Program-made: the position numbers and the translations under genes
Part shown: one piece after another, positions 29,303 to 44,471 of the stretch
Position numbering within the stretch: position 1 is the first letter of the stretch
Layout of the letters: each line of letters opens with the position of its first letter
DNA from: an uncultured Planctomycetota bacterium
GTDB lineage: Bacteria > Planctomycetota > PLA2 > JAEUHO01
NCBI GenBank assembly: GCA_963752285.1
Contig: CAVVXN010000005.1
Span: 1,376,001-1,440,000, forward strand
Reading direction: 5' to 3'
Length of the DNA: 64,000 bases
The notes under the pieces: model-generated
What the model saw: only the letters and a program-made list of their open reading frames with translations
Database searches by the model: none
Told to the model about the DNA's origin: nothing

Positions 29303-30381
29303 CGCGCGTCCTCCCCCGCGCCGCCGGCGCCGAGCCACGCCTCGACGATCTCGCGGTACGCGCGCGCCGCGAGCCGCACCTGCTCCACGGCGACGGACTC
29401 GTCGGGCGCGTGGCTCTGGTCGCTCGTCCCCGGGCCCATCACGACGCCGGGCACGTGACGCACGTGGTAGAGGTCGGAGACCCCGCCGAAGCCGCGGACG
29501 CGCCCGGTGGGGCTCGCCCCCCGGGCCACCTCGAGGATCCGCGCGTCGTCCCGGGTGCGGACGGGCTCGAACCGACGGCTCTTCACCTCCACGTCCGACG
29601 CCGCCACGGAGCGGATGCGCGCGAGCATCTCGTCGTTTCCGCAGCCGGGCGTGGTGCGCCCGTCGAGGTCCACGACGCACTCGCCGGGGACGACGTTCGC
29701 CCGCGTGCCGCCGTGGATCACCGTGGAGACCAGCGTCGCCGGGCCGAGGAGCGGGTCGGCCTCGCCGAGGTCGATCTCGGTGAGGCGGACGACGTCCCGC
29801 GCGGCCTTCTCGATCGCGTTCTCGCCCTCCCACGGCCGCGACGCGTGGCACGCGCGGCCGCGCGCGACGAGCCGCGCGCGGAGCAGCCCGCGCTGACCGG
29901 GGCACACGTCGAGCCCGGTGGGCTCGCCGATCACGGCGGCGGAGAAGGCGGGCAGCGACGGCGCGAGCGCCTCGAGCCCCTCCCCGCCCGTCTCCTCGTC
30001 GCAGACGAGCGCGAGGACCAGCCGCCCCGCGAGCCGCGCCGGGTCCAGCTCCGCCACGGCAAAGGCCATCGCGGCGACGCTCGCCTTCGCGTCGTTCGCG
30101 CCGCGCCCGAAGACGCGTCCGTCCTCGAACGCGCCGTCCCACGGATCGCGCGTCCAGCCGGGCCCGACGGGGACGACGTCCGTGTGCGAGCAGAGGAGGA
30201 GGCCCTCGCCCGGGCCGAGGCCGCCCTCGAGGCGGGCGAGCACGTTCCGGCCGGACGCCTCGGCGGGCACGCCGCGCGCGCGAAGCCACGCGAGGAGGAG
30301 GTCCCGGCACGCGACCTCCTCGCCCGACACCGAGGGGATGCGAACGAGGCTCTGGAGGAGGTCCACGACGCCCTCGCTCAC
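29299..30381 (-). CDS. argE: M20 family deacylase (ArgE-like; acylcitrulline/acylornithine)
   Basis: SHTDVV, GRGANDAK, CDEE, GEPT, SHAPDE; within the arg operon. Confidence 0.82.
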   Translation of the reverse strand: MSEGVVDLLQSLVRIPSVSGEEVACRDLLLAWLRARGVPAEASGRNVLARLEGGLGPGEGLLLCSHTDVVPVGPGWTRDPWDGAFEDGRVFGRGANDAKASVAAMAFAVAELDPARLAGRLVLALVCDEETGGEGLEALAPSLPAFSAAVIGEPTGLDVCPGQRGLLRARLVARGRACHASRPWEGENAIEKAARDVVRLTEIDLGEADPLLGPATLVSTVIHGGTRANVVPGECVVDLDGRTTPGCGNDEMLARIRSVAASDVEVKSRRFEPVRTRDDARILEVARGASPTGRVRGFGGVSDLYHVRHVPGVVMGPGTSDQSHAPDESVAVEQVRLAARAYREIVEAWLGAGGAGEDAR

Positions 30382-31280
30382 ACGATCGTCCCGTCGGGGT
30401 CGGGCTCGATCAGCGTGCCCACGCCGGTCGCGGTGAAGAGCTCGAGGAGGAGCGCGTTCTCGTCGAGGCCCGACAGGATGTGGCCGGCCTCGACGCCGCC
30501 CGCCACGGCGTCCACGATCGTCTCGACCTTCGGGCGCATCCCGCCGACCACGCTGCCCGACGCGAGCGCCCGGCGCGCCTCCGAGACCGTGAGCCTCGAG
30601 ATCACGCTGGACGGGTCGTTCGCGTCCCGGAGCAGGCCGGGGACGCCCGTGAGGCTCAGGAGCTTCGCCGCGCCGAGGTCCTTCGCGATCACGGACGCGA
30701 CCGTGTCGGCGTTCACGTTCAGGACGTTCCCCTCGGCGTCGCCCGCGAGCGAGGAGACGACGGGCACGTAGTCGTGCTCGACGAGGAGCGAGAGGAGCGA
30801 GGTGTCCACGTGGGTCACGTCGCCGACGTGGCCGAAGTCCACCACCTGGCTCTCGCCGGTCTTCGGGTCCCGCACCTCGGTCGGGGGACGGCGCGTCGCA
30901 TGGAGGATGTCGCCGTCCACGCCCGAGAGGCCCACCGCGTGCACGCCCTGCGCGCGCAGCGCCGAGAGCAGGTCGAGGTTGATGCTCCCGGCGAACACCA
31001 TCTTCGCGACGTCCAGCGTGGCCTCGTCCGTGATGCGGCGGCCCTGCACGAGCTTCGGCTCGAGCCCGAGCCGCCGGGACAGCTCCGTCGCCTGCGGGCC
31101 GCCGCCGTGCACGACGACGAGCCGGATGTTCACGTGGGCGAGGAGCGAGACCTCCTGCGCGAACGAGAGGAGCGCGGACGGGTTCGCGGCGATCTCGCCG
31201 CCGAGCTTCACGACCATCTTCCGGCGGCGGTGGCGCCGCAGGAACGGCAGGGCCTCCTTCAGCAGCGAGACGTCCCTCAC
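30378..31280 (-). CDS. argB: Acetyl(acyl)glutamate kinase
   Basis: VVKLGG, VVHGGGPQ, GRRITD, NVNAD, GGMRPK. Confidence 0.94.
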   Translation of the reverse strand: MRDVSLLKEALPFLRRHRRRKMVVKLGGEIAANPSALLSFAQEVSLLAHVNIRLVVVHGGGPQATELSRRLGLEPKLVQGRRITDEATLDVAKMVFAGSINLDLLSALRAQGVHAVGLSGVDGDILHATRRPPTEVRDPKTGESQVVDFGHVGDVTHVDTSLLSLLVEHDYVPVVSSLAGDAEGNVLNVNADTVASVIAKDLGAAKLLSLTGVPGLLRDANDPSSVISRLTVSEARRALASGSVVGGMRPKVETIVDAVAGGVEAGHILSGLDENALLLELFTATGVGTLIEPDPDGTIV

Positions 31281-32311
31281 GAGCCCACCTCCACGCCGAG
31301 CGCGCGGCAGAGCGTGGCCTTCTGCACGTCGAGACGCGCCCCCGCCTCCGCGATCACCAGGCTCGCCTTCGAGTCGAGCACCTCGTCCGTCACGACCACG
31401 CCGCGACGCACGGGGAGGCAGTGGAGGAACACCGCGTCGTCCGTGTCGGCCATGGCCCGCGCGTCCACGATCCAGTCCCGCCGCGCCGCCAGGTCCCGGC
31501 GCGCCGCGTCGAGGTCGCCGTAGCGGCCGCGCGCGCCCCACGACTTCGCGTAGACCACGTGCGCGCCGCGAAGGCCGGCGCCGCGCGTGGTCGTCGTCTC
31601 GACGCGTCCGCCCGCCTCCCGCGCGCGGCGCTCGGCGTCGGCGAGCACCTCCTCGTCGAGCTCGTAGCCCGGCGGGTGCTCGACGACGACCTCGTGGCCG
31701 TCCGTCGCGAAGGCGAGGAGCGCGGCGTGCGGCACCGCGAGGGGCAGCGGGTTCACGTGCGGCGCCCAGCGGATCGCGACCCGGACCTTCCGGCCGCCGA
31801 ACCGGCGTCGGACCGTCAACGCGTCCGCGAGGCCCTGGTGCGGGTGGTCCATCGCCGACTCGAGGCTCAGGACGGGGACGCGCGAGGCCGCGGCCACGCT
31901 CCGGATCACGGGATCGCGCCGGTCCTCCGCGGCGTCCTCGAGCCGCGCGAAGCTCCGGACCCCCAGGAGGTCGAGCATCGTGCCGAGCACGGGGATCCCC
32001 TCCTTCACGTGCTCGGCCGCGTCGCCGTCCATCACCACGCCGTCCCGGTACTCGAGCCGCCAGAGGCCCTGCCCCACCTGGAGGTGCACCGCGTGCGCGC
32101 CGAGGTCCAGGCTCGCGACCTCGAACGCGACGCGCGTGCGGAGCGACGACTGGAAGAACACCATCCCGAGCCGGCGTCCGGACAGGAGCGGCGCGCGACC
32201 GCGCGGTCCCGCGAGGACCTCGGCGTCGGAGAGCAGTCCGCGAAACTCCGCGGCGTCCACGTCGCGGAGCGAGAGGAGATGGCGGAGCGGGAGCGGGGCG
32301 GGGGCGGTCAC
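31277..32311 (-). CDS. argF: N-acylornithine carbamoyltransferase (ArgF' class; SOTCase-like)
   Basis: SLRTR, MDGDAAEH, HPHQ, WAPH..PLP.AV, YAKSWG, HCLPVRR. Confidence 0.9.
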   Translation of the reverse strand: MTAPAPLPLRHLLSLRDVDAAEFRGLLSDAEVLAGPRGRAPLLSGRRLGMVFFQSSLRTRVAFEVASLDLGAHAVHLQVGQGLWRLEYRDGVVMDGDAAEHVKEGIPVLGTMLDLLGVRSFARLEDAAEDRRDPVIRSVAAASRVPVLSLESAMDHPHQGLADALTVRRRFGGRKVRVAIRWAPHVNPLPLAVPHAALLAFATDGHEVVVEHPPGYELDEEVLADAERRAREAGGRVETTTTRGAGLRGAHVVYAKSWGARGRYGDLDAARRDLAARRDWIVDARAMADTDDAVFLHCLPVRRGVVVTDEVLDSKASLVIAEAGARLDVQKATLCRALGVEVGS

Positions 32312-32406
32312 GGTCGCGAAACCTTACCGGCGGGCGGGCGGCGGCGGGAGCCCCGAAGCGATCTCGTCGTCGCGCGCGTCGCGAGGGCGCGCACGGGGGG
32401 CCTCGG

Positions 32407-33618
32407 CTACCCGAGCGCCGCGGCGAGCGCCGGCGGGAACGTCGCCGCCTCCGCCTCCGTCAGCACGAGCGGCGGGAGGAGGCGGATCTGCTCGGGTCGC
32501 CCGGATCCGCCGACGAGGAACCCCGACGCGCGGAGCCGCTCGACGACCGGGCGCGCCGGCCGGTCCAGGTCCACGCCGAGGAGGAGGCCCTTCCCCTGGA
32601 CGGCGACGACGCCGTGGACCTCGCGAAGCCGACCCGCGAGGAGGCCCCCCACGCGGCCCGCGGCCTCCGGGAGGCGGTCCACGACGATCGTCGTGGCCAC
32701 CGCCGCGATCGCGGCCGCGGCGAGCGGACCGCCGCCGAACGTCGTGCCCTGCTCACCGACCCGGATCCTCGCCGCGAGGTCCTCGCGCACGAAGACGACC
32801 CCGGCGGGAAAGCCGCCGGCGACGCCCTTCGCGCCGGTGATGAGGTCGGGCCGGACGCCCACGCCCTCGCCGAAGAACAGGGTGCCCGTGCGCCCGAAGC
32901 CCGTCTGGACCTCGTCGAACACGAGCAGCGCGCCCGTCCGGTCGCACACGCGGCGGAGCGCGGCGAACCACGCGTCGGGCGCTACGCGGACCCCCCCCAT
33001 CGACGGGATCGGCTCGAGCAGCACGGCGGCGACCTCGTCGGTGACCGCGTCCTCGAGCGCGTCCACGTCGCCGTACGGGACGAAGACGTGGCCGGGGGGC
33101 AGGGGGTACGCGGGGTCGCGGTACGACGCGAGCCCCGTGGCGCCGAGCGCGCCGAGCGTTCGACCGTGGAACCCCTCGCGCATCGAGACGACCTTCGGCC
33201 GTCCCGTGTGCTTGCGCGCGATCTTGAGCGCGGTCTCGTTCGCCTCGGCACCGCTGTTGCACAGGAAGACGCGGCGGAGTCCCTCCGGTGCGAGGTTCGC
33301 GAGCAGGTGGACCGCGCGGGCGCGCACGTCCGAGTAGACGAGGTTGCTGTAGAAGACGAGGCGCCGGGCCTGGGCCTCGAGCGCGCCCAGGAGGCGCGGC
33401 GGGCGGTGGCCGACCAGCGCGACCGCGTGGCCGCCGTACAGGTCGAGGTACCGCCGGCCCTCCGCGTCTACGACGGTCGAGCCCTCGCCCTCTACGAGCA
33501 CGACCGGGATCTTCGCGTACGTAGGGACTTGCCAGAGGTCCTCCTCGCGACGCGCCGCGTCGGCGTCGGCCGGCAGCGGACCGACGAACCGCTCGAGGTC
33601 CTCGCGCGCAGAGCTCAC
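32407..33618 (-). CDS. argD: Acylornithine aminotransferase
   Basis: YLDLYGGHAV, NSGAEANE, FHGRT, FDEVQTGFGRTG, GAKG, GTTFGG. Confidence 0.9.
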   Translation of the reverse strand: MSSAREDLERFVGPLPADADAARREEDLWQVPTYAKIPVVLVEGEGSTVVDAEGRRYLDLYGGHAVALVGHRPPRLLGALEAQARRLVFYSNLVYSDVRARAVHLLANLAPEGLRRVFLCNSGAEANETALKIARKHTGRPKVVSMREGFHGRTLGALGATGLASYRDPAYPLPPGHVFVPYGDVDALEDAVTDEVAAVLLEPIPSMGGVRVAPDAWFAALRRVCDRTGALLVFDEVQTGFGRTGTLFFGEGVGVRPDLITGAKGVAGGFPAGVVFVREDLAARIRVGEQGTTFGGGPLAAAAIAAVATTIVVDRLPEAAGRVGGLLAGRLREVHGVVAVQGKGLLLGVDLDRPARPVVERLRASGFLVGGSGRPEQIRLLPPLVLTEAEAATFPPALAAALG

Positions 33619-34637
33619 AGCCCGAGCCCCGGCCGCGACAGGCCCGCGCGCTCCTCGAGGCCGAACACGAGGTTCAGGTTCTGCACGGCCGCGCCCGCCA
33701 TGCCCTTGCCGAGGTTGTCGAGCGCCACGGTTACGCAGGCCATCTCGTCCTCGACGAGGACGCTCACGTCGGCGAGGTTCGTCCCCACGACCGCGCGGAG
33801 TTCGGGAGGCGCATCGAGGAGGCGCACGAACGGCTCCGCGCCGTACGCCTCCTCGAACGCGGCCCGAACCGCCTCGCGCCCCGCCGTGACGGGGACGAGC
33901 GCCGTCACGTAGATGCCGCGCGCGAACGGCGCGGAGCACGGGACGAAGCCGAGTCGCGTGGCGGGCCCGAGCGCCTGGCGGATCTCCGGGAGGTGCTGGT
34001 GCGCGAGCGGACGGTAGGCCTTGAAGTTCGAGAAGCGCTCCGGGTGGTGGGTCCCCGGCTTCGGCTCGGCGCCGGAGCCGGAGGAGCCCGTGACGCTCGT
34101 GACGCCCGCGGGGCCCGCGAGGAGGCCGCGCGCCGCGAGGGGCCAGAGCGCGAGGATCGTCGCCGTCGCGTGGCAGCCCGGGTTCGCCACGAGGCGCGCG
34201 CCCCGGATCGTCGCCCGCCGGCCGATCTCGGGGAGACCGTACGCGGCCTTTGCGAGGCGTTCGGGGTGCGGGTGCTCGAACCCGTACCAGACGGGGTAGA
34301 GCGTCGGGTCCCCGAGGCGGAAGTCGCCGGAGAGGTCGATCACGACCAGGTCCGGCGCCTCGTCGAGCAGGCGCGGCGTCTCCTCCGCCGAGACCCCGTG
34401 CGGACGCGCCTGGAACACGACGTCCACGGAGCGGGCGATCTCGAGGACCCGTCCCGGCTCCTCGCGCGTCAGCTCGAGGTCGGTGAAGCCCCGGAGGTGC
34501 GGGTGCACCGCGGCCACGGGGCCCACGCGACTCCGACTCGTGACGGCCACGACCTCGACCTCGGGGTGGTCGAGGAGGAGACGGACGAGCTCCATCCCCC
34601 CGTAGCCGGTGCCTCCGAAGATCGCGGCCCGGATCAT
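33615..34637 (-). CDS. argC: N-acyl-gamma-glutamyl-phosphate reductase
   Basis: GGTGYGG, IDLSGDFR, YGLPE, ANPGCH, HQHLPEI, DNLGKG.AG.AVQ. Confidence 0.94.
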   Translation of the reverse strand: MIRAAIFGGTGYGGMELVRLLLDHPEVEVVAVTSRSRVGPVAAVHPHLRGFTDLELTREEPGRVLEIARSVDVVFQARPHGVSAEETPRLLDEAPDLVVIDLSGDFRLGDPTLYPVWYGFEHPHPERLAKAAYGLPEIGRRATIRGARLVANPGCHATATILALWPLAARGLLAGPAGVTSVTGSSGSGAEPKPGTHHPERFSNFKAYRPLAHQHLPEIRQALGPATRLGFVPCSAPFARGIYVTALVPVTAGREAVRAAFEEAYGAEPFVRLLDAPPELRAVVGTNLADVSVLVEDEMACVTVALDNLGKGMAGAAVQNLNLVFGLEERAGLSRPGLGL

Positions 34638-35569
34638 CCGACGGCGAGGGCCTTCACTTCCTCGATGCCTTGCGAGACGGACGCGGCCGACTTCTGGAGC
34701 GCGGCCGTCTCCTCGGCGTCGAGCGGCAGCTCGACGATGCGCTTCACGCCGCGCGCGCCGAGGGCCACGGGCAGGCCGCAGTACGTGCCGTGGAGCCCGT
34801 AGACGCCGTCCGCCCACGTGCTGCAGGGCAGGATCCTGCCGCTGTCGTGGAGGATCGCCTCGGCCATCACGACCGCGCTCGAGCCCGGCGCGTAGTACGC
34901 GCTGCCGGTCCCGAGGAGCTTCACGATCTCGCCGCCGCCCTTGCGCGTGCGGTCCACGATCGCCGCGAGGCGGTCCTTCGGGACCAGCTCGGTCACGGTC
35001 ACGCCGTTCACGGTGCTGAAGCGCGGGAGCGGGACCATCGTGTCGCCGTGGCCGCCGAGGACCATCGCCTTGACGTCCTTCGGCGAGCAGCCGACCTCCA
35101 TCGCGATGAAGGCCGCGAAGCGCGCGGAGTCGAGCATGCCGGCCATGCCGACGACGCGGCCCGGCTCGAAGCCGGACTCCTGCTGGACCACCCACGTCAT
35201 CACGTCGAGGGGGTTCGTGACGGTGACCACGACGGCGTCGGGGGCCTGCTCCCGCAGGATGCGGCCGGCCGAGCGTGCGATCTCGACGTTCTTCCGGAGC
35301 AGGTCCATGCGGTCCATGCCGGGCTTGCGGGGGAAGCCGGCCGCGACGATCACGACCTCCGAGCCCTCGAGGACCGCGGGGTCGTGCGACCCGGTGATCC
35401 GCGCGTCGTAGGCGAGCACGGGGCCCGCCTGGGTCATGTCCAGGGCCTTGCCGGCGGGAACGCCCTCGCAGATGTCGTACAGCGCCACGTCGCCGAGGTC
35501 CCGCGTCGCCGCCACGAACGCCGCCGTGGCGCCCACGTTGCCGCCGCCCAGGATGCCGATCTTCCGCAT
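34634..35569 (-). CDS. mdh: Malate dehydrogenase (LDH-like type)
   Basis: GGGNVG, GKALD, PRKPGMDRMDL (Arg specificity loop), TNPLD, LDSARF, GGHGD. Confidence 0.94.
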   Translation of the reverse strand: MRKIGILGGGNVGATAAFVAATRDLGDVALYDICEGVPAGKALDMTQAGPVLAYDARITGSHDPAVLEGSEVVIVAAGFPRKPGMDRMDLLRKNVEIARSAGRILREQAPDAVVVTVTNPLDVMTWVVQQESGFEPGRVVGMAGMLDSARFAAFIAMEVGCSPKDVKAMVLGGHGDTMVPLPRFSTVNGVTVTELVPKDRLAAIVDRTRKGGGEIVKLLGTGSAYYAPGSSAVVMAEAILHDSGRILPCSTWADGVYGLHGTYCGLPVALGARGVKRIVELPLDAEETAALQKSAASVSQGIEEVKALAVG

Positions 35570-35712: not shown

Positions 35713-37149
35713 TCAGAGGAGCGGGGCGAGGAGGCGGGCGCCGCCCGAGAGGAGACGGCGGACTCGGGAGCGGGCGGCGAGGCCGTCCAGGGTGTAGGGG
35801 GTGGACCGCGCGAGGATCCGCCCGAGCGCGTCCTCGAGCTCCGACACCTCGCGCGCGCCGTCCAGGACGGCCATCTGCTCGAAGTTCAGGTGGAGCGAGC
35901 GGTTGTCGAGGTTGGCGGTGCCGATCATCCCCCAGGCGCCGTCTACCGCGACCGCCTTCGCGTGCATCATGCCCGGCCGGTACCCGTGGACCCGGACGCC
36001 GGCCTCGAGGAGCTCGCTCATCATCCACTCGCCGCAGAGCTGCGCGATCCGGATGTCGCCGGGCGGCCACTGGGTCACGATGTCCACCTCGACCCCGGAG
36101 CGGGCCGCCGACGCGAGGGCGTCGCGGAGCGTGGGGTCGGGCACCAGGTACGGCGTCGCGACGAGGATCCGCGTCCTCGCCCGCACGAACGCCCCGAAGA
36201 ACGCCTCGCGGATCGCGTTCACGTCCTGGTGCGGCCCCCCCGGCAGGATCTGGACGGTCGCGTCGCCCGCAGGCTCGAGCCGGGGGTAGTAGGCCGGGGC
36301 GGCGAGCAGCGCGCCCGTGGCGAAGTCCCAGTCGTCCACGAACATCCGCTGGAGGTCCACGACGCTCGGCCCGCGGAGCTCGACGTGGAGGTCGCACCAG
36401 TCCCGGCCCCGCCCGTAGCGGCCGAGGTACTCGGCGCCCACGTTCAGGCCGCCGAAGAACGCGACGCGCCCGTCGCAGACGACCGTCTTCCGGTGGTTTC
36501 TGAGGTTCGGCGTGACGCGCTTCCCGAAGGGCCGCACGGGGAGGAACTCGGCGAGCTCGCCGCCGGCCCGCTCGAGGCGGCGGAACATGCGCCGCGCCCC
36601 CATCGAGCCGATCGCGTCCACGAGCACGCGGACCTCGACGCCCGCCCGCGCCCGCTCGGCCAGGAGCTCGGTCGCGTACCGACCGAGGTCGTCGTCGCGC
36701 ACGATGTAGAACTCGACGTGCACGTGGTGCTCGGCGGCCCGGACCGCGTCCTCCATGGCCTGGAAGGCGGCGATGCCCTCCGTGTAGAGGACGAGCCGGT
36801 TCCCCGTCCGTCGCGGCCCCTCGCCGAGGTCCTCGAGCACACGACCGAGCCGACGCCACGGCGGGTCGGCCCCGTCGCCGCCCTCCGTCTCGCCCGGCGC
36901 GGGGAGCCGGCGCGCGAACGACTCATGGTGGCGGATGCGACGGCGGAGGCGCCGCGGCACGCGGTTCGAGCCGAACACGAGGAACAGCCCGAGCCCGAGT
37001 CCCGGCAGGAACACGATCGCGAGGGACCACCCGAGCGCGGCCGCCGGCTCGCGACGTCGGAGGAGGGCCGCCACCACGCCGGCCACCATGAGGACGAGCC
37101 AGAGCCAGCCGAAGACGCCGAGGAGCCACGATCCGATCGCGGCGACCAC
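35713..37149 (-). CDS. cls: Cardiolipin synthase (PLD family)
   Basis: Two N-terminal TM segments; HKD motifs NHRKTVVCDG and MHAKAVAVDG; ANLDNRS. Confidence 0.9.
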   Translation of the reverse strand: MVAAIGSWLLGVFGWLWLVLMVAGVVAALLRRREPAAALGWSLAIVFLPGLGLGLFLVFGSNRVPRRLRRRIRHHESFARRLPAPGETEGGDGADPPWRRLGRVLEDLGEGPRRTGNRLVLYTEGIAAFQAMEDAVRAAEHHVHVEFYIVRDDDLGRYATELLAERARAGVEVRVLVDAIGSMGARRMFRRLERAGGELAEFLPVRPFGKRVTPNLRNHRKTVVCDGRVAFFGGLNVGAEYLGRYGRGRDWCDLHVELRGPSVVDLQRMFVDDWDFATGALLAAPAYYPRLEPAGDATVQILPGGPHQDVNAIREAFFGAFVRARTRILVATPYLVPDPTLRDALASAARSGVEVDIVTQWPPGDIRIAQLCGEWMMSELLEAGVRVHGYRPGMMHAKAVAVDGAWGMIGTANLDNRSLHLNFEQMAVLDGAREVSELEDALGRILARSTPYTLDGLAARSRVRRLLSGGARLLAPLL

Positions 37150-37158
37150 CGGACCGGC

Positions 37159-38664
37159 TCAACGCACGTTCGGCGAGCGGACGATCGGCGGAGGAGGAGG
37201 CGGCGGCGGCGGCGGGCTCGACGCCCCGGAACCGCCGGAGGGCACGCCGCTGGAGCCGGCGGGCACGGACGCGCCCGGCGGCGACGACGCGCGCGGCGAC
37301 GACGCGCGCGGCGCGTTCTCCTCGAGCAGCCGCGTCAGCCGCTCCTCGAGTGCGTGGTAGTCCTCGACGCTCGACTGGAACGACGCGAGCGCCCGACGGA
37401 GCAACGCCTGGGCCTCGGGGTCCGCGGGCGGCGAGCGGAGGGCGTCGCGGACGGTGGCGGCCGCGCGGTCCATGCGCTCCATCGCACGCACGTAGCTCTG
37501 CATGGTGGCGCGCAGGTTGTCGAACGCGACCTCCTCGCCGGAGGGCTCGTTCAGGAGGACCCACGGCTGCGACCGGATCTTCTCGGTCGCGTCCACGAGG
37601 TTCTGGCCCGCGTCGGTCAAGAGGTTCATGAGGCCGTGCACGTCGGTGCCCACGCCCTCGAGCAGCCGGGAGACGCGCGGGCCGTTGGAGCGGAGGTCGT
37701 CCGAGAGCGCGGCGAGGTTCGTGCCCACCCGCCCCACGTCGTCCAGGAACGCGTCGAGCTTGGGGCCGGCCTTCGCGACGATCGCGTCGAGCCGCCCCGT
37801 CGTGGTCTTCATCCGGCCGAGGATCTCCCCCACGTCCTTGTCGGCGTTCTCGGCGAGGTGCGCGCCGCTCGCCGCCATCCGGCGGAAGTCGGCGAGGGTC
37901 GCCGTGAGGCCGTCGGCGATGCCGCCGATCCGGTCCCCGAGGGTCGTCGCGGTGGCGCGGAGCGACGCGGTCGCCGCCGCGACGTCGTCGAGGGCTTGCT
38001 TGACCTTCTCGCTCTCGATGACGTTCTTGCGCAACGAGGAGATCGTGTCGCGCGCCTCGTCCGCGGCCGCGCCGGCCTTTTGGAAGGTCGTACGCGCCTC
38101 GCCGATGAGCCCCTTCAGGTCCTCCGCCACCTCGTCCGCGCGCTCCGCGATCTCGGTGAGGCCCGGGGACTGGAGCACGCGGATCGGGCTCTTCGCGATC
38201 TCCTCGTCCGAGAGGTTCTGCCGGGACAGCCCGGGGACCAGACGGAGGTTCCGCGAGCCGGTGATCGTCTCGCTGATCTTCCCCGCCGTGCCGACGGGGA
38301 CGACGAGGTCCGCGCGCACCTCGGCGACGGCGAGGACGTACGTCACGCGGGCCGCGGCGTCCGGAGGCAAGGTCTCGAGGCCCGACTCGAGGAGGAGCTG
38401 CTGTCGCTCGGAGCTCGTGAGCTCGTCGCCGCGGTGGACCTCCGTCCGGAACGCGACGTCCTTCACCTTGCCCACCTCGACGCCGCCCACGTTGATCGGG
38501 TCGCCCGCCCGCGGCGCGAGCGCGCCCGGTTCGATCCAGAGCGTGAGGGTGCGCCAGTGGCCGAAGACGCGTCCCCCGGTCGCGAGGAGGAGGAGCGCGA
38601 CCAGCACGCCGCTCGCGACCAGCACGACGAGACCGGCCTTGACCTCGGCGCTCCGAGACTGCAT
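37159..38664 (-). CDS. MlaD/MCE-domain protein with a long helical C-terminal region
   Basis: EVKAGLVVL TM, GDPINVGGVEVGKV, long heptad-rich region, EKIRSQPWVLL. Confidence 0.85.
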   Translation of the reverse strand: MQSRSAEVKAGLVVLVASGVLVALLLLATGGRVFGHWRTLTLWIEPGALAPRAGDPINVGGVEVGKVKDVAFRTEVHRGDELTSSERQQLLLESGLETLPPDAAARVTYVLAVAEVRADLVVPVGTAGKISETITGSRNLRLVPGLSRQNLSDEEIAKSPIRVLQSPGLTEIAERADEVAEDLKGLIGEARTTFQKAGAAADEARDTISSLRKNVIESEKVKQALDDVAAATASLRATATTLGDRIGGIADGLTATLADFRRMAASGAHLAENADKDVGEILGRMKTTTGRLDAIVAKAGPKLDAFLDDVGRVGTNLAALSDDLRSNGPRVSRLLEGVGTDVHGLMNLLTDAGQNLVDATEKIRSQPWVLLNEPSGEEVAFDNLRATMQSYVRAMERMDRAAATVRDALRSPPADPEAQALLRRALASFQSSVEDYHALEERLTRLLEENAPRASSPRASSPPGASVPAGSSGVPSGGSGASSPPPPPPPPPPIVRSPNVR

Positions 38665-38785
38665 CCGTACGTGCCCTCGCCCCGTCCGCCCGCTGCCGAC
38701 CGGACCGTCCTCGACCTCCCAGCGCCACCAATCCTAGCAGGCCGCCCGGTCCCGCCCGGCGTTCCTCGTCTCGGGCCTCGGCGGA

Positions 38786-38810
38786 CCCGGCGGGGACCCG
38801 CGCGGTCCAC
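38786..38810. repeat. 25-bp intergenic element, copy 1 (REP-like)
   Basis: CCCGGCGGGGACCCGCGCGGTCCAC, identical at 58168-58192. Confidence 0.75.
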
Positions 38811-38832
38811 CCGCGACTCGATCCCCGGCTCG

Positions 38833-39648
38833 TCAGAGGCGGAAGAGCAGGAAGTAGTTGAGGATCGCGTCCGTGATGATGATCGCGATGATCGACGTCA
38901 CGACCGCGTTCGTCGTGACGCGCCCGACGCCCTCCGCACCGCCCTTCACCTGGAAGCCCTGGTAGCAGCCGACCGTCCCGATGATCGTCCCGAAGACCGC
39001 GGCCTTGAAGAGGCCGCGCCACACGTCCGACCCGGTGAGCTGCGTCCAGGCCTGTTCGAAGAAGATCTGCGGCGAGAGCCCGAGCACGCCGACGGCGACG
39101 ATCAGGCCCCCGAGGATCCCCAGGACGTCTCCGAGCAGCGTGACGCAGGGGATCATCACCATGGTCGCCAGAACGCGCGGCGCCACGATGTAGCGCACGG
39201 GGTTCAGCGCCATCGTCTGCATGGCGGTCGTCTCCTCCGTGACGACCATCGTCCCGATCTCCGCCGCGAAGGCCGCGCCGATGTAGCCGGTCATGATGAT
39301 GCCGGTCAGGAGCGGCCCCAGCTCGAGCACGACCCCCACGCTCATCAGGTTGCCGACGTAGCGCGTGAACCCGAGCGTCAGGAGGATGTTCCCGCCGATC
39401 AGCGCGAGGATCAGCCCCACGAACAGGTTCACCAGGAACACCACGCCGAGCGACTGCGGCCCCACCCGGAGCGACTGGGCCACGAAGTCGCGCTCGCGAA
39501 CCGGCCGCCCGCGCCAGGGCCCGACCGCCGCGTGGTAGAGGGCGGCCCGGAGCATCAGGAACACCCCGCCCACGAAACGGGCCAGCCCGAGGGACCGCGC
39601 GCCGAGGGCGGCGACCGGACCGGAGGACCTGGAGGCGGGCTCGGCCAC
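38833..39648 (-). CDS. MlaE family ABC permease
   Basis: ELGPLLTGII, AEIGTM.VTEE..AM..M..NP, GGAEGVGRVTTNAVV. Confidence 0.93.
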   Translation of the reverse strand: MAEPASRSSGPVAALGARSLGLARFVGGVFLMLRAALYHAAVGPWRGRPVRERDFVAQSLRVGPQSLGVVFLVNLFVGLILALIGGNILLTLGFTRYVGNLMSVGVVLELGPLLTGIIMTGYIGAAFAAEIGTMVVTEETTAMQTMALNPVRYIVAPRVLATMVMIPCVTLLGDVLGILGGLIVAVGVLGLSPQIFFEQAWTQLTGSDVWRGLFKAAVFGTIIGTVGCYQGFQVKGGAEGVGRVTTNAVVTSIIAIIITDAILNYFLLFRL

Positions 39649-39653
39649 GGCGT

Positions 39654-39983
39654 TCAGACCCGGAGGGCCTCGTCGCGCGTCTCGCGGATGTCGAAGATCG
39701 AGGTCAGGTTCGAGAGGCGGAACAGGTTCTTCACGCCGGGCGCGAGACCGACGAGCCGGAGCTTCCCGCCGTACCGGCCGGCTCCCTGCAGCGCCTCGAT
39801 GAGCGTCGCGAGCCCGCTCGAGTCGATGAAGGAAACCGACGTGAGGTCGGCGACGAGCGGCGTCGCGCGCCGGTCGAGGGCCTGCCTCAGGTGCTGCCGG
39901 AGCTCGGGGCTCGTGTGCATGTCCACCTGACCTTCCACGATCAGGAGGATGGCGGATCCATGGTCTTCACGTTGCACGTTCAT
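39654..39983 (-). CDS. STAS-domain anti-sigma factor antagonist
   Basis: GQVD..TSPELR, DLTSVSFIDSSGLATL with the phospho-acceptor Ser. Confidence 0.92.
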   Translation of the reverse strand: MNVQREDHGSAILLIVEGQVDMHTSPELRQHLRQALDRRATPLVADLTSVSFIDSSGLATLIEALQGAGRYGGKLRLVGLAPGVKNLFRLSNLTSIFDIRETRDEALRV

Positions 39984-40441
39984 CGGGGGTGGTCCTCGGG
40001 GGGGGGCGACGGCTCGGGCTCCGCTCGGCGCCTGAGGAGGGTGAGCGTCGTGCCCCCGTGCTCGTTCTTGCGGTACTCGACGCTGTCCATCGTGGATCGC
40101 ATCAGGTGGACGCCCAGGCCGCCCGGTCTCAGGTCTTCGAGCGCGCGCGACCGGATCTGCGCCGGGTCCACGAACTCGCCGTAGTCCTCGATCTCGAGGC
40201 GGAACGTGCCCGGCGGGGCGTAGAGCCGGAGGTCGATCGCCTGGTCGGTGGCGCCCCGGTACCCGTGACGCATCACGTTCGTCACGCCCTCGGTGACGCC
40301 GAGGACGATGCGCTCGCGGTCCTCGCCCCGGAAGCCGGCGGCCTCGGCGCCCTCGGCGGCGAGCGCCCGGACGAGGGGCAGGAAGCGCGGGTGGCTGGGG
40401 AGCCGGACGAAGACCTCGTCCGGGCGGGCGGAGGTGCTCAC
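39980..40441 (-). CDS. RsbW/SpoIIAB-like anti-sigma Ser kinase (HATPase_c_2)
   Basis: EGVTNVMRHGY, IEDYG, GGLGVHLM..MD.V.Y, GTTLTL; GTGA/ATGA overlaps with both neighbours. Confidence 0.9.
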   Translation of the reverse strand: MSTSARPDEVFVRLPSHPRFLPLVRALAAEGAEAAGFRGEDRERIVLGVTEGVTNVMRHGYRGATDQAIDLRLYAPPGTFRLEIEDYGEFVDPAQIRSRALEDLRPGGLGVHLMRSTMDSVEYRKNEHGGTTLTLLRRRAEPEPSPPPEDHPR

Positions 40442-40812
40442 GGGGTGCCTCCCGGTCGGGTCGCCGACGCGCCGCCGTTCGCGGCCCACCACGCCCGCCA
40501 GTCCCGGATCGCCTCGCGCTGCGACTCCGGCGGCGCCCAGGGGACGTAGGAGGTGTGGTGTCCCGTCAGCTTCTCCAGGCTCCCGCTCGCGGCGAGCCGC
40601 ACGGCCGGGTCCTCGTCGTCGAGGAGACCGATCAGGTCGGGCACGCGCTCGCGGTCGGCGTGCGCCCGCACCAGGAGCACCGCGCGCGTGCGCCGCGCCG
40701 GGTCGGGGTCCGTGAGGCCCTCCTCGACCTGGAGCGGGCGTCGTGCCGTGCCTCCGCATCCGAGGACGAGGAGAAGGGACAGGGCGGCGACCCGTCCACC
40801 CCTGATCGCCAT
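40438..40812 (-). CDS. HEAT-repeat lipoprotein
   Basis: Lipobox VLG-C; VPDLIGLLDDEDPAVRLAA..L..LTG...W..WW. Confidence 0.8.
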   Translation of the reverse strand: MAIRGGRVAALSLLLVLGCGGTARRPLQVEEGLTDPDPARRTRAVLLVRAHADRERVPDLIGLLDDEDPAVRLAASGSLEKLTGHHTSYVPWAPPESQREAIRDWRAWWAANGGASATRPGGTP

Positions 40813-40848: not shown

Positions 40849-40877
40849 ATTCTCGGCCTATCCATGGGCATCGTCAA
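40849..40877 (-). promoter_or_regulatory. sigma70-like promoter for the HEAT-RsbW-STAS-MlaE-MlaD-cls operon
   Basis: TTGACG-N17-GAGAAT on the minus strand; the -35 overlaps the SDR stop codon. Confidence 0.5.
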
Positions 40878-41887
40878 CGTGCCGGAACGTTTCCCCGGCG
40901 TCCCGCGGGCGCGAGCCAGCCCGCCTCGCGGTACCAGACCGCGGTCCGCCGGGTGCCCTCGGCGGCGCCGACCTCGGCGTGCCAACCGACGTCCGCACGG
41001 AGCGCGTCCGCGCTGCACACGTACGCCGTGCCTCCGAGCTCGAGGACGCGCTGGCGGTTCAGGAGCGGCGCCCGGCGCTGGAGCTGGCCCACGACCTCCG
41101 AGGCCGAGGCGAGCAGGCGGAGCGTGCTGTCCGGCACGCGGACGAGGCGCGCGGGCCGCCCCACCGCCCGCGCCACGTGGGCCAGGAAGTCCTCGACGGG
41201 GAGGCGCTCCGGGTGCGTGAGGAAGTACGTCCGCCCGACCGAGGTCGGGTGCCGCGCCGCGGCGAGCATGCCCGCCGCGACGTCCTCGGCGTAGACGAAG
41301 TGGTAGGTGCGGCCCCCGTCCCCCAGCCGCGGCAGGATCCCCCGCGCCGCGGCCTTGAACACGGCGAGGAAGTCGCGGTCGTAGGGACCGTACACGGCCG
41401 GGGGACGCAGGATCGTCCACGCGATCCCGTCGGACTCGAGGCGCACCACCTCCTCGGCGACGCGCTTGCTCTCCCCGTACCAGGTGACCGGGCGACAGGG
41501 GTCCCCCTCCCGCAGGTCGTGACCGTCTGGTGACGGCCCCGCCGCGGCGAGGCTCGAGCAGAGGACGAAGCGGCCCGCGAGCCCCGCGCGCCGCGCCGCG
41601 CGGACCAGCGACCGCGTCGCCTCGACGTTCGTCTCGAACATCTCGCGGCGCGTGCGCGAGCGCGTCAGCGCCGCGAGGTGGTAGACCTCGTCCACGCCGC
41701 GAACCGCCCGGGCCACCGCGTCGGGGTCGCGGACGTCGCCGGGCACCATCTCGACCTCGAGGCCCGCGAGCGTCTCGGGACGGGTGCGGCGTCGCGAGAG
41801 GCAGCGGACCGCGTCGCCCTCGGCGAGGAGGTGCCGAACGAGGTGACTCCCCACGAAGCCGTGGCCACCGGTCAACAGGACCCGCAT
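40874..41887 (-). CDS. NAD(P)-dependent epimerase/dehydratase (extended SDR); candidate ceramide/3-ketosphinganine reductase
   Basis: TGGHGFVG, HLAA, SSLAA, YGESK, RPPAVYGP. Confidence 0.85.
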   Translation of the reverse strand: MRVLLTGGHGFVGSHLVRHLLAEGDAVRCLSRRRTRPETLAGLEVEMVPGDVRDPDAVARAVRGVDEVYHLAALTRSRTRREMFETNVEATRSLVRAARRAGLAGRFVLCSSLAAAGPSPDGHDLREGDPCRPVTWYGESKRVAEEVVRLESDGIAWTILRPPAVYGPYDRDFLAVFKAAARGILPRLGDGGRTYHFVYAEDVAAGMLAAARHPTSVGRTYFLTHPERLPVEDFLAHVARAVGRPARLVRVPDSTLRLLASASEVVGQLQRRAPLLNRQRVLELGGTAYVCSADALRADVGWHAEVGAAEGTRRTAVWYREAGWLAPAGRRGNVPAR

Positions 41888-41949
41888 CCGACCGAGCATA
41901 GCGGCGGCGCCGCTCGCGAGGTGCCGCCGCGGGGGCCACCAGGGCCAAG

Positions 41950-41977
41950 TTGACGGGGAGGGGGCGGTCCCTACCAT
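41950..41977 (+). promoter_or_regulatory. sigma70-like promoter for spt-bCerS
   Basis: TTGACG-N16-TACCAT. Confidence 0.45.
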
Positions 41978-42136
41978 GGGGCGGCTCTCGGCCGACCCCT
42001 CCGGCCCCCGACCGGCGCACGGGGCCGGGAGCGACGGTGGGCGAGGGCCGCGGACCCGGTGGTCGGGTATCGTGGCGGCGGGGCGGGAGTCGCACTCGGT
42101 TGGGCCCGGGGCCTCGCCCCGCGAGGACGAGCGGAT

Positions 42137-43330
42137 TTGGACCTGTTCGCGAAGATCGCCCGGTGGCACCGGGCCGACGACTTCATGGAAGCGGGGATCT
42201 ACCCCTACTTCCGCGCCATCGAGGAGACCACCGGGGGAACCCGGGTCGTCCTGGACGGGCGGGACGTCGTCATGGCGGGGTCCAACAACTACCTCGGCCT
42301 GACCCACGACCCGCGGGTCATGGAGGCCTCCCGGCGCGCGGTCTCGCGGTTCGGGACCGGCTGCACGGGCTCGCGGTTCCTGAACGGCACGCTCTGCCTC
42401 CACGAGGAGCTCGAGGAGCGCCTCGCCGACTTCCTGGGGAAGGAAGCCTGCATCACGTCGGGCACGGGCTACCAGACGAACGTCGGGGCGATCGCGGCGC
42501 TGAGCGGGCGCGAGGACCTCATCTTCGGCGACCGCGACAACCACGCCTCCATCATCGACGGCTGTCGCCTCTCGTTCGCCAAGCTCCTGAAGTACCGCCA
42601 CAACGACGTCGAAGACCTGGAGCGTCTCCTCGCGGAGACGAGCGTGACCGGCGAGGGCGCACGCCTCATCGTCACGGACGGCGTGTTCTCGATGCTCGGC
42701 GACCTCGCCCCCCTGCCCGACCTCGCGCGCCTCGCGCGCGAGAACGACGCGCGCCTCCTGGTGGACGACGCCCACGCGATCGGCGTCCTCGGCGCCCACG
42801 GGCGCGGCACGGGAGAGCACTTCGGCGTCGAGAAGGACGTGGACCTGGTCGTCGGCACGTTCTCCAAGTCGTTCGCGTGCCTCGGCGGGTTCGTGGCCGG
42901 GCCGAAGCAGATCGTCCACTACATCAAGCACTGCAGTCGCTCCGTCATCTTCTCCGCGAGCATGACGCCCGCGAGCGTCGCGACGGTCCTGGCGTGCCTC
43001 GACATCATCGAGCGCGAGCCCGAGCGCCGGCAGCGCCTCTGGGACAACGTCCAGTACATGAAGCACGGGTTCGAGGAGCTGGGGCTGGACGTGATCGACG
43101 GCGGGAGCCCCATCCTCTCCGTCGTGATCGGCGAGGAGGTGGCGACGCTCGAGTTCAACCGGCTCCTCTACCAGCACGGGGTGTTCGTGAACCCCGTGCT
43201 CCCGCCGGCCGTGCCCGACGGGATGAGCCTGCTCCGCACCTCCTACATGGCGACGCACACGAGCGAGGACCTCGACCGGATCCTCGAGGCCTTCAAGGCC
43301 GTGGGCGATCAGCTCCGCATCGCTCGGTAG
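42137..43330 (+). CDS. spt: Alpha-oxoamine synthase, serine palmitoyltransferase-like
   Basis: IYPYFR, GSNNYLGL, GTGCTGSRFLNGT, NHASIIDG, DDAH, PLP Lys in GTFSKS; TTG start with GAGGA RBS. Confidence 0.8.
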   Translation: MDLFAKIARWHRADDFMEAGIYPYFRAIEETTGGTRVVLDGRDVVMAGSNNYLGLTHDPRVMEASRRAVSRFGTGCTGSRFLNGTLCLHEELEERLADFLGKEACITSGTGYQTNVGAIAALSGREDLIFGDRDNHASIIDGCRLSFAKLLKYRHNDVEDLERLLAETSVTGEGARLIVTDGVFSMLGDLAPLPDLARLARENDARLLVDDAHAIGVLGAHGRGTGEHFGVEKDVDLVVGTFSKSFACLGGFVAGPKQIVHYIKHCSRSVIFSASMTPASVATVLACLDIIEREPERRQRLWDNVQYMKHGFEELGLDVIDGGSPILSVVIGEEVATLEFNRLLYQHGVFVNPVLPPAVPDGMSLLRTSYMATHTSEDLDRILEAFKAVGDQLRIAR

Positions 43331-43343
43331 GCGGTCGGTCCCC

Positions 43344-44471
43344 GTGCCCGATCCCGTCCGCGTCCTCCCCGAGTCCGGCCCGAAGGACCGCGCGCGGTTC
43401 ATCGACTTCCCGTACCGGCTGTACCGCGGCCACCCCGTCTGGGTCCCGCCGCTCCGCGTCGGGGAGCGAGACCTGATGGACCGGAGGAAGAACCCCTTCT
43501 TCCGGCACGCGACCGTCGAGCACTTCCTGGCCTGGCGCGGCGACCGCGTGGTCGGACGCGTGGCGGCCATCGAGAACCGTCTGCACAACGAGACCCACCA
43601 CGACCGGCTCGGCTTCTTCGGGTTCTTCGACGTCGAGCCCGACGCGGAGGCGGCGCGCGGCCTCCTCGACGCCGCCCGTGCCTGGCTCGCGCCGCGCGGC
43701 CTAGATCGCGTGTGCGGACCCGTCAATTACAGCACGAACGACTCGTGCGGGGTCCTGGTGGACGGCTTCGAGCACCGGCCGGCGATCCTGATGCCGTACA
43801 ACCGCCCGGACTACGACGAGCTGGTCGTCGGCGCCGGATTCGAGGGCGTGAAGGACCTGCTCGCCTTCCTCATCACCCACGAGGGGGAGGTCCCGGAGCG
43901 CTTCCGGAACGTGGTGAACCGTCGGGTCGCGAAGTCGAACCTCACCCTCAGGGACATCGACACGAAGCACCTCGACGACGAGATCGACGGGCTTCTGGAC
44001 GTCTACAACCGGTGCTGGTCGGACAACTGGGGATTCGTGCCCGCGACGGCCGACGAATTCCGTCACGCGGCCAAGCAGATGGTCCCCGTGCTCGAGCAGG
44101 ACATGTCGTGCGTGGCCGAGCTCGACGGCAAGCCGGTCGGCGTGAGCCTGATCCTCCGCGACCTGAACCGCCTCCTCCCCGGCACGAACGGGCGGCTGTG
44201 GCGCGCGCTGCCGCGCCTCCTCTTCGGGCTCTCGAAGCTCAAGCACATGCGGATCATCGCGCTGGGGGTCGTGCCCGAGTGCCGCGGCCGCGGCATCGTC
44301 GAGGCGATGTTCCTCCGCTCCACGGACGTCGGCATCCGGAAGGGGTACCTGACGGGCGAGGCGTCCTGGATCCTCGAGGACAACCGCCTGATGCAGGCCC
44401 CCATCGTGGCCGTGGGCGGACGGGCTTGGAAGCGCTACCGGATGTACGAGGCCCCGACGGCCCCGGCCTGA
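43344..44471 (+). CDS. Double-GNAT protein resembling bacterial ceramide synthase (bCerS/YghO-like)
   Basis: FIDFPYRLY..WVPPL, NPFF.H, VGRVAA, GFFGFF, MPYN, NWGF.P, SWILEDN; 13 bp after spt. Confidence 0.78.
   Translation: MPDPVRVLPESGPKDRARFIDFPYRLYRGHPVWVPPLRVGERDLMDRRKNPFFRHATVEHFLAWRGDRVVGRVAAIENRLHNETHHDRLGFFGFFDVEPDAEAARGLLDAARAWLAPRGLDRVCGPVNYSTNDSCGVLVDGFEHRPAILMPYNRPDYDELVVGAGFEGVKDLLAFLITHEGEVPERFRNVVNRRVAKSNLTLRDIDTKHLDDEIDGLLDVYNRCWSDNWGFVPATADEFRHAAKQMVPVLEQDMSCVAELDGKPVGVSLILRDLNRLLPGTNGRLWRALPRLLFGLSKLKHMRIIALGVVPECRGRGIVEAMFLRSTDVGIRKGYLTGEASWILEDNRLMQAPIVAVGGRAWKRYRMYEAPTAPA

Follow-up and report, generated by a model that had tools for sequence, protein, structure and literature searches.

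A divergent spt-bcerS-cerR locus with a predicted ceramide pathway in a planctomycete

Three genes with a predicted role in sphingolipid synthesis are clustered in the window, the whole 64,000-nucleotide stretch of DNA that was analysed. The preliminary description of this DNA reported the gene of an Spt-like alpha-oxoamine synthase (AOS), followed 13 bp downstream by that of a double-GNAT protein, with an extended SDR encoded divergently. All three open reading frames are indeed intact, with the limits given below. The host, an uncultured bacterium, was taken there to be Planctomycetota-like, and the closest homologues bear planctomycete names.

40874..41887, minus strand: cerR-type extended SDR (predicted ceramide/3-keto-sphingolipid reductase), 337 aa, intact ORF
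41898..41903, minus strand: TATGCT, a conserved hexamer resembling a -10 box, a few bases ahead of the cerR start codon
41950..41977, plus strand: candidate promoter of sigma-70-like type for spt-bcerS (TTGACG-16-TACCAT), placed back to back with the element of cerR
42137..43330, plus strand: spt, predicted serine palmitoyltransferase of Bacteroidota/deltaproteobacterial sequence type, 397 aa, TTG start
43344..44471, plus strand: bcerS, YghO-family tandem GNAT (predicted bacterial ceramide synthase, N-acyltransferase), 375 aa

The divergent intergenic region between cerR and spt is 249 bp long. Most of the aligned family relatives likewise have a TTG at the position of the spt start. The arrangement, with the SDR gene pointing away from spt and the GNAT gene, is present in 18 of the 20 regions fetched from relatives, so that it is more than a chance association. 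The divergent layout is also common in the phylum, where it occurs at 13 of 40 Planctomycetota bcerS loci.

In 15 of 18 family sequences, which as kin are not independent, TAnnnT occurs between positions -22 and -4 of the cerR start, compared to 0.5 expected from shuffled sequences. It was found at none of the 18 spt starts and none of the 18 GNAT starts in the same interval. The conserved hexamer so close to the start codon suggests that the cerR transcript is leaderless. On the opposite strand, the promoter candidate of spt-bcerS was found once, versus 0.0 times in shuffled sequences. Several relatives in the alignment show the reverse complement of its -35 box, as read by eye and uncounted.

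Family placement of the AOS and the GNAT protein

In a phylogenetic tree the AOS groups with Spt and is split from BioF, Kbl and HemA at 99/96, in line with its original designation as Spt-like. It lies inside a clade holding proteins that score above the curated alpha-, beta- and CFB-Spt cut-offs (careful tree, 48 rows; 15 of the 62 extracted AOS, mostly close planctomycete relatives, were left out beforehand). Its best solved relative is the SPT of Sphingobacterium multivorum (E 1e-121), followed by the weaker matches of a cysteate acyltransferase (3e-78), E. coli Kbl (7e-76) and E. coli BioF (4e-65). The best NCBIfam model is SerpalmtaseCFB, with 514 bits. Nevertheless, the AOS is below every curated Spt cut-off, scoring 514/640, 420/500 and 330/670 for NF047600, NF047599 and NF047603, respectively. 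Judged by its sequence, it is an Spt-like protein outside the lineage-bound NCBIfam Spt models.

It is hardly credible that the AOS could be BioF or Kbl, with an unrelated acetyltransferase as the GNAT. The bioF and kbl models do score 395 and 383 bits on the AOS, but both values are under the cut-off and under the Spt model, and the tree places the protein with Spt. Furthermore, a separate Kbl, above its curated cut-off with 686 bits, is encoded elsewhere in the genome, and the AOS occurs jointly with a YghO-type GNAT. The absence of bio genes nearby, remarked on earlier, extends to the genome as far as BioB and BioC are concerned: queries with the E. coli proteins gave no match at E 1e-8. 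The lone BioA-like match in the window is a class-III aminotransferase of an arginine operon. The AOS gene has neither a bio nor a tdh context.

The residues H136, D210, H213, K244 (in GTFSKS) and R367 are present. When the serine pocket described in PMC10196870 is mapped by hand from the alignment with S. multivorum SPT, all 12 residues are kept (N52, G80, S81, H138, S185, D210, H213, T241, S243, K244, S273 and A274). The pocket also differs from that of S. multivorum at A79 (T), S53 (N), F114 (Y) and M271 (I), as well as at A287 and F338. These substitutions, together with the scores below the curated cut-offs, raise the question of whether the AOS prefers another amino acid. With alanine or glycine it would give 1-deoxy-ceramides and with cysteate a sulfonolipid; the product would then be a ceramide-like amide lipid of another kind. 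The S. multivorum SPT is reported to take alanine and glycine too, with low efficiency, and Aquimarina carries an AOS with residues of cysteate type at a distance of 4 kb from a YghO-type GNAT. However, the T and the Y at two of the differing positions are shared with the enzyme of the E. coli spt cluster, and the Y with that of Sphingomonas. The marks of the cysteate enzymes CapB/SulA (Ala82, Ala249, Lys280 and no equivalent of Asn117; PMC13692747) are absent, the window AOS having S79, S243, A274 and N115. A preference for another amino acid is therefore improbable, and L-serine is the expected substrate.

The GNAT protein had been credited with bCerS-family motifs. E. coli YghO and Sphingomonas Aca, given in PMC9386255 as orthologues of Caulobacter CC_1154, each match just one gene in the genome when used as queries, namely the GNAT gene of the window. 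The matches score 171 bits for YghO and 203 bits for Aca over ~95% of the length. A search by sequence found no solved relative. The AlphaFold model (pLDDT 95) has tandem GNATs as its best Foldseek matches, e.g. 2wpw and 7q3a, which bears out the double-GNAT reading. At least 90% of the 54 family members agree at 31 columns, and 29 of these are shared with both YghO and the Sphingomonas Aca orthologue. No transmembrane helix was found, the highest 19-residue hydropathy being 1.5. These data place the GNAT in the bCerS family, as a predicted N-acyltransferase of long-chain bases.

The divergent SDR

The SDR, earlier named as a possible reductase, is of CerR type by best match, tree and profile. 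It is the best match in the genome for the E. coli epi/CerR orthologue (4e-32, the next being 6e-11) and for the Sphingomonas CerR orthologue (7e-27, the next being 3e-12). In a quick tree with long branches it belongs to a 98% clade with both orthologues and all 26 linked SDRs of the tree; one long-branch paralogue fell inside the same clade, and 14 of 63 SDRs, mostly close planctomycete relatives, had been left out beforehand. A profile built from 15 linked non-planctomycete SDRs scores the window SDR at 334 bits, as against at most 222 bits for 21 of 22 unlinked SDRs, the exception being the best match in Prevotella (325). Against the E. coli orthologue, a single stand-in query, the SDR scores 125 bits, by our own arithmetic about E 1e-27 at a database size of 1e8. 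Ding et al. 2024 (PMC11334938) give their CerR filter as E ≤1e-30 at that size against their own query set.

The protein has the Rossmann motif TGxxGxxG, the catalytic residues N87, S111/S112, Y137 and K141, and Arg32 at the end of β-2. T6, G7, G10, G13, N87, S111, S112, Y137 and K141, which cover the NAD(P)H site and the SDR catalytic residues, are invariant in 18 aligned linked SDRs. Neither a Tat/Sec extension nor a signal peptide was found, and there is no conserved upstream frame, N-terminal extension or transmembrane stretch.

The trio is complete in 31 of 41 related genomes and entirely absent in 7. In three of these seven (G026, G033 and G035) it is cleanly lost, the flanking genes having closed over the gap. 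G029, which is 95% complete, retains spt-bcerS but cleanly lacks cerR, and in G037 no in-clade reductase was found. The genes themselves, their family placement and catalytic residues, their linkage and their joint loss are direct observations.

Because synteny extends over the entire neighbourhood throughout the order, linkage of the SDR alone proves little. One could thus imagine that spt and bcerS are genuine and that the SDR is an unrelated neighbour, resembling a sugar epimerase or sterol dehydrogenase, kept by ancestry. Its best NCBIfam models, HpnA and SdmB (both far under the cut-off), and the missing cerR of G029 would fit this. However, the SDR is lost along with spt-bcerS while the flanks stay, and members of the CerR clade adjoin spt or bcerS in five other phyla (Bacteroidota, Acidobacteriota, Actinomycetota, Thermodesulfobacteriota and Proteobacteria), which makes such a neighbour very improbable. 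With a CerR-type SDR the backbone pathway, described at first as near-complete, is complete: all three backbone enzyme families are present, as predicted from homology.

Proposed route to dihydroceramide

The activities, step order, acyl donor and cofactor described here are extrapolated from characterised homologues. A soluble, PLP-dependent Spt would condense L-serine with a long-chain acyl thioester into 3-ketosphinganine. The tandem-GNAT bCerS would N-acylate this base to 3-keto-dihydroceramide, and the CerR-type SDR would reduce the 3-keto group, probably with NADPH, to dihydroceramide. The spt-bcerS pair and cerR would be transcribed from back-to-back promoters and inherited as one cassette. 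The trio probably makes dihydroceramide by this bacterial route, in the order Spt, bCerS, CerR. That it makes a ceramide-type backbone, by either order of the last two steps, is very likely.

The other order, eukaryote-like and leading to the same product, has the SDR first reduce 3-ketosphinganine to sphinganine, which bCerS then acylates. Olea-Ozuna and Padilla-Gomez have proposed it for the same gene family, the main intermediate in B. thetaiotaomicron is sphinganine, and an SDR free of a signal peptide or upstream extension may be cytoplasmic, a location allowing either order. The 3-KDS reductase of B. thetaiotaomicron is a different protein, however (BT_0972), and deletion of cerR in Caulobacter and B. 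fragilis leads to accumulation of oxidised ceramide, the doubly acylated keto form. Reduction before acylation is therefore unlikely, and the order ending with CerR is preferred.

The acyl donor is most likely acyl-CoA, or possibly acyl-AcpP, because no AcpR or AasR is linked to the locus. None of the six PP-binding matches in the genome is inside the window, which agrees with the initial remark that it holds no dedicated ACP gene. The sole match to AcpR queries is the ACP of the plsX-fabD-fabG-acpP-fabF operon; AasR queries gave weak matches, none of them at the locus. No AcpR/AasR pair was found; NRPS-like frames and transposase genes surround the ACP and adenylation matches on C2. That an ACP is missing comes as no surprise, since the specialised AcpR is described in PMC9386255 as occurring together with spt in proteobacteria of the alpha, beta and gamma groups. 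The Rhodobacterial system has five genes (spt, acpR, aasR, epi and aca), whereas the window locus has no linked AcpR and AasR.

The locus has the three enzyme families together in a cluster, as in the pathway of Caulobacter crescentus and the orthologous clusters of E. coli and Sphingomonas. The Caulobacter proteins are Spt (CC_1162), bCerS/Aca (CCNA_01212 = CC_1154) and CerR/Epi (CCNA_01222 = CC_1164), the CC and CCNA tags being paired by the roles given in PMC9386255 and PMC10865984. Compared with the orthologues from E. coli and Sphingomonas, Spt is 37-41% identical, bCerS 31-33% and CerR 29-33%. Identity is just 26-33% to the bCerS and CerR stand-ins, orthologues named in papers and used in place of the tested proteins of Caulobacter and B. 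fragilis. Unlike in Caulobacter, the window locus is devoid of AcpR, AasR and lptF2/lptG2, its Spt is not of proteobacterial type and its cerR is divergent. Caulobacter CerR is reported to be periplasmic; no signal peptide was seen in the window SDR.

The Bacteroidota references are S. multivorum SPT (PDB 3A2B, 8GUH) and the B. fragilis proteins CerS (BF9343_4218) and CerR (BF9343_4240). The resemblance to this phylum lies in the closest solved structure, the closest curated model (CFB) and the lack of a linked specialised ACP, although the window Spt does not fall within the clade scoring above the CFB cut-off. Chitinophaga has an spt-GNAT-SDR operon and Aureispira the same divergent layout as the window, whereas in Bacteroides and Parabacteroides the genes are not adjacent in the stretches fetched. 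The 'Clade B' Spt-like proteins of Black Sea MAGs (PMC11334938) likewise have bCerS and CerR homologues close by; the available text of that paper describes neither a gene layout of the window type nor a planctomycete lipid.

Neighbouring genes and significance for Planctomycetota

Of the 20 relative regions, 16 have mlaE and mlaD after cerR on the strand of that gene; two more have undergone an inversion and carry them directly behind bcerS. If the cassette handed its product to this MlaE/MlaD (MCE) transporter in this planctomycete order, sphingolipids would travel by an MCE route. This would explain the movement of such lipids in producers that have no LptF2G2, and in a phylum with possible ceramide synthesis in roughly four of every ten genomes sampled. 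Such a handover is improbable. MlaE is encoded in 40 of the 41 genomes, including all seven without the trio, and the transporter block is intact in G026, G033 and G035 (region L098 ends just after mlaE). Elsewhere in the phylum the transporter is near none of 40 bcerS loci. MlaE/MlaD is thus probably not dedicated to the trio and would be at most a shared housekeeping route.

Candidate head-group enzymes were rejected as well. The cardiolipin-synthase-like gene at 35713-37149 was found in none of the 20 relative regions; the four PAP2_3 and two weak GT21-like matches in the genome are all unlinked to the trio. Since lpxC, the sole marker used, is kept in all 41 genomes, nothing suggests a replacement of LPS as in Sphingomonas.

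A bCerS-type gene is present in 91 of 201 sampled Planctomycetota genomes. The preliminary description overrated the novelty of the pathway in this phylum, because PMC11334938 already lists Spt-like proteins in 138 MAGs of Planctomycetota, out of 1271 spanning 38 phyla. The trio adds one more ordinary case of a pathway whose presence in Planctomycetota had been predicted before. Proof by lipid chemistry of a ceramide pathway in the phylum was not found in the literature, and 'sphingo' and 'ceramide' occur nowhere in the text of a 2025 review of Planctomycetota.

The findings leave the known mechanism unchanged. The cassette is a clean and complete spt-bcerS-cerR addition to the known pathway and backs the treatment of the divergent SDR as CerR. 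The natural variants, in which the trio or cerR alone has been lost, could be used to study whether acylation or reduction comes first, which is disputed. Planctomycetes may be a source of ceramides in the environment that has been overlooked.

The cassette and its genome

Three intact genes, arranged as in the preliminary description with a double GNAT behind the synthase and a divergent SDR, occupy window positions 40874-44471:

40874-41887, minus strand: extended SDR (CerR-type), 337 aa, intact
42137-43330, plus strand: alpha-oxoamine synthase (Spt-like), 397 aa, TTG start, intact
43344-44471, plus strand: GNAT (bCerS-type), 375 aa, intact

The gap between spt and the GNAT gene is 13 bp, and the divergent SDR and spt starts are 249 bp apart. 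The host genome (4.6 Mb, 73% G+C, 89% complete) carries the window on a 2.3 Mb contig, and the GNAT's nearest named homologues come from Planctomycetota MAGs. In line with the earlier remark that no bio genes are nearby, E. coli BioB and BioC queries found no match in the whole genome at E 1e-8. Equally, none of the six ACP-domain matches in the genome falls inside the window, which had been described as lacking a dedicated ACP gene.

In 15 of 18 family sequences, compared to 0.5 expected, a TAnnnT element lies shortly before the cerR start, and this closeness suggests a leaderless cerR transcript. A sigma-70-like candidate promoter is directed at spt.

Elsewhere in the window (27878-35569) there is an arginine biosynthesis operon headed by malate dehydrogenase. 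Its argC, argD, transcarbamylase, argB, argE and argH-like genes were read from translations, and argC, argD and mdh were identified by Pfam. Another contig of the genome (C2, 49200-61000) contains NRPS-like adenylation, condensation and carrier frames, apparently fragmented, beside transposase-like genes.

Probable identity of the three enzymes

The sequence of the synthase is Spt-like. Its closest solved relative is the Sphingobacterium multivorum SPT (E 1e-121), followed by Sphingomonas SPT (~1e-85), cysteate acyltransferase (3e-78), E. coli Kbl (7e-76) and BioF (4e-65). Among NCBIfam models the one for Bacteroidota Spt scores highest, but its 514 bits fall short of the cut-off (640), and the bioF and kbl models (395 and 383 bits) likewise miss theirs; the window Spt falls outside the curated lineage models. 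The phylogeny proposed earlier as a check was calculated from 47 of the 62 extracted proteins plus that of the window, 48 in all; proteins of E. coli, Sphingomonas and Bacteroidota above curated Spt cut-offs and annotated BioF, Kbl and HemA served as references. The window synthase falls among the Spt proteins, which are split from BioF, Kbl and HemA at 99/96; the deeper branching order among them is not firm. The genome has just one further synthase of this type, a Kbl that scores 686 bits against a cut-off of 493. The serine-pocket residues named in PMC10196870, mapped by hand on an alignment to the solved SPT, are kept (N52, G80, S81, H138, S185, D210, H213, T241, S243, K244, S273 and A274), and none of the cysteate-enzyme marker residues given in PMC13692747 is present.

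Related synthases occur in other settings. In Aquimarina sediminis (L066, 5950-11390) a synthase carries residues of the cysteate type (Ala for Ser81, Lys for Ala274), and ~4 kb away lies a YghO-type GNAT, possibly the N-acyltransferase of the sulfonolipid pathway. A Priestia megaterium plasmid (Bacillota; L127, 4001-5215) encodes an Spt-clade synthase scoring 525 bits with the CFB model, and no bCerS-type gene is among its annotated neighbours. The spt of a contig titled Rhodothermaceae (L054) is nested within the window's planctomycete family, likely by binning error or transfer.

The GNAT is, by sequence, a bCerS-type protein of the YghO family. According to PMC9386255, E. coli yghO and sphingomonad genes are orthologous to CC_1154 of Caulobacter, which encodes the acyltransferase required for dihydroceramide; PMC10865984 was a further source of locus tags. 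An E. coli and a Sphingomonas cluster of this kind served as stand-ins. The GNATs of these two clusters align with the window GNAT over nearly all of its length (171 and 203 bits), and neither has a second match in the genome. The bCerS-family motifs seen earlier are borne out by 29 of the 31 columns near-invariant in 54 family members, which are common to both stand-ins. The AlphaFold model predicts a tandem GNAT (pLDDT 95); a sequence search for a solved relative found none.

The SDR, previously put forward as a possible reductase, is assigned to the CerR type. Of the genome's many SDRs it is the best match of both the E. coli and the Sphingomonas epi/cerR, with E-values 21 and 15 orders of magnitude ahead of the next, and its own best Chitinophaga match is the SDR of an spt-GNAT-SDR operon. 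In a quick tree of 49 rows (14 close planctomycete rows of 63 being left out), a 98% clade of 28 rows unites every spt- or bcerS-linked SDR (26 rows), a Prevotella best match and one long-branch paralogue; all 21 rows outside it are unlinked. A profile made solely from linked SDRs of other phyla (15 sequences) gives the window SDR 334 bits and other linked planctomycete SDRs 307-354, compared to at most 222 for unlinked ones, the Prevotella protein excepted. The Rossmann motif, N87, S111/S112, Y137, K141 and Arg32 are invariant across 18 linked SDRs. The window SDR has no N-terminal extension. In SDRs a basic residue at the position of Arg32 is a mark of NADPH preference, so NADPH is the probable cofactor.

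Predicted pathway and neighbouring genes

Spt would condense serine with an acyl thioester to 3-ketosphinganine, bCerS would N-acylate this, and CerR would reduce the keto group, giving dihydroceramide. This order is most likely by analogy, because cerR mutants of Caulobacter (PMC11087976) and B. fragilis (bioRxiv 10.1101/2023.05.23.541633) support acylation before reduction; the reverse order, reduction before acylation, has a rather low probability. The acyl donor is probably acyl-CoA, since no AcpR or AasR is linked to the trio and AcpR queries matched only the housekeeping ACP. AMP-binding matches in the genome number eight, all types together. Nothing points to LPS replacement, lpxC being present in 41/41 genomes.

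Two features follow cerR:

37159-40812, minus strand: conserved block of HEAT lipoprotein-like, anti-sigma-type HATPase, STAS protein, mlaE and long mlaD-like genes
35713-37149: cardiolipin-synthase-like PLD gene, directly behind mlaD

The PLD gene was seen in none of 20 relative regions. In 16 of these 20, mlaE and mlaD lie downstream of cerR on the same strand, and in two more, L039 (G016) and L043 (G021), the block from STAS to bcerS is inverted internally, so that mlaE-mlaD come immediately after bcerS. Four sister-family regions have an mlaF-type ATPase gene between mlaE and mlaD, which the window's family lacks at that place; the best such match in the genome is on contig C1 (45% identity). 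A link is tempting because bioRxiv 10.64898/2026.04.12.717747, as far as available, leaves open the export route of sphingolipid producers without LptF2G2. The block persists where the trio is lost, however, and is near none of 40 other bcerS loci, so that handover of the product to MlaE/MlaD is very improbable.

Distribution and loss of the trio

In a sample of 201 Planctomycetota genomes, the window's own and 13 of its order included, the GNAT profile matches 91 at E 1e-30, 84 of them <1e-100. Forty bcerS loci from 39 genomes, picked for spread and contig size, have within ~6 kb a clear Spt (23), a synthase of uncertain type (6 more) or a CerR-type SDR (17); 13 show the exact divergent layout. 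In L164, L171, L172, L178, L184 and L187, Planctomycetota bcerS is near a synthase scoring about equally with Spt and BioF/Kbl/HemA profiles (352-407 bits), possibly a different amino-lipid pathway; L184 has two tandem bcerS copies. On a plasmid of the actinobacterium Rubrobacter radiotolerans (L117, 5908-11500), an LTA-synthase-family gene that may encode a head-group enzyme comes after an spt-bcerS-cerR operon.

The 41 genomes compared (own, 24 of the same family, 11 more of the order, 5 others) gave orthologue-level matches to Spt in 34 (E <1e-130), GNAT in 33 and SDR in 32 (E <1e-59). The trio is complete in 31 and entirely absent in seven; in G026, G033 and G035 (93, 78 and 82% complete) it is gone and the flanking genes are contiguous. 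G018 is missing the GNAT alone, its spt match being <300 bases from a contig end. The three genes move together, which is a pattern and not a statistical test because the genomes are kin.

The spt-bcerS-cerR cassette is well supported as real; homology places it in the bacterial ceramide pathway, in whose manner it would work. The pathway type is already known: Ding et al. 2024 (PMC11334938) count 1271 MAGs with Spt-like proteins, from 38 phyla and including 138 Planctomycetota, with bCerS and CerR often nearby, and the cassette is a further example. A literature search, mostly of papers outside subscription, found no report of a sphingolipid in a planctomycete, nor did the available part of PMC12619533; 'sphingo' and 'ceramide' are absent from the text of the review PMC12673574. 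Two genomes, G029 and G037, have spt-bcerS, and an in-clade reductase was not found in them. In G029 (95% complete; L050, 6258-9201) cerR is cleanly absent, and the CerR profile finds no CerR-level match elsewhere (best 134 bits). G029 may thus be a natural producer of oxidised ceramides or rely on a different reductase.
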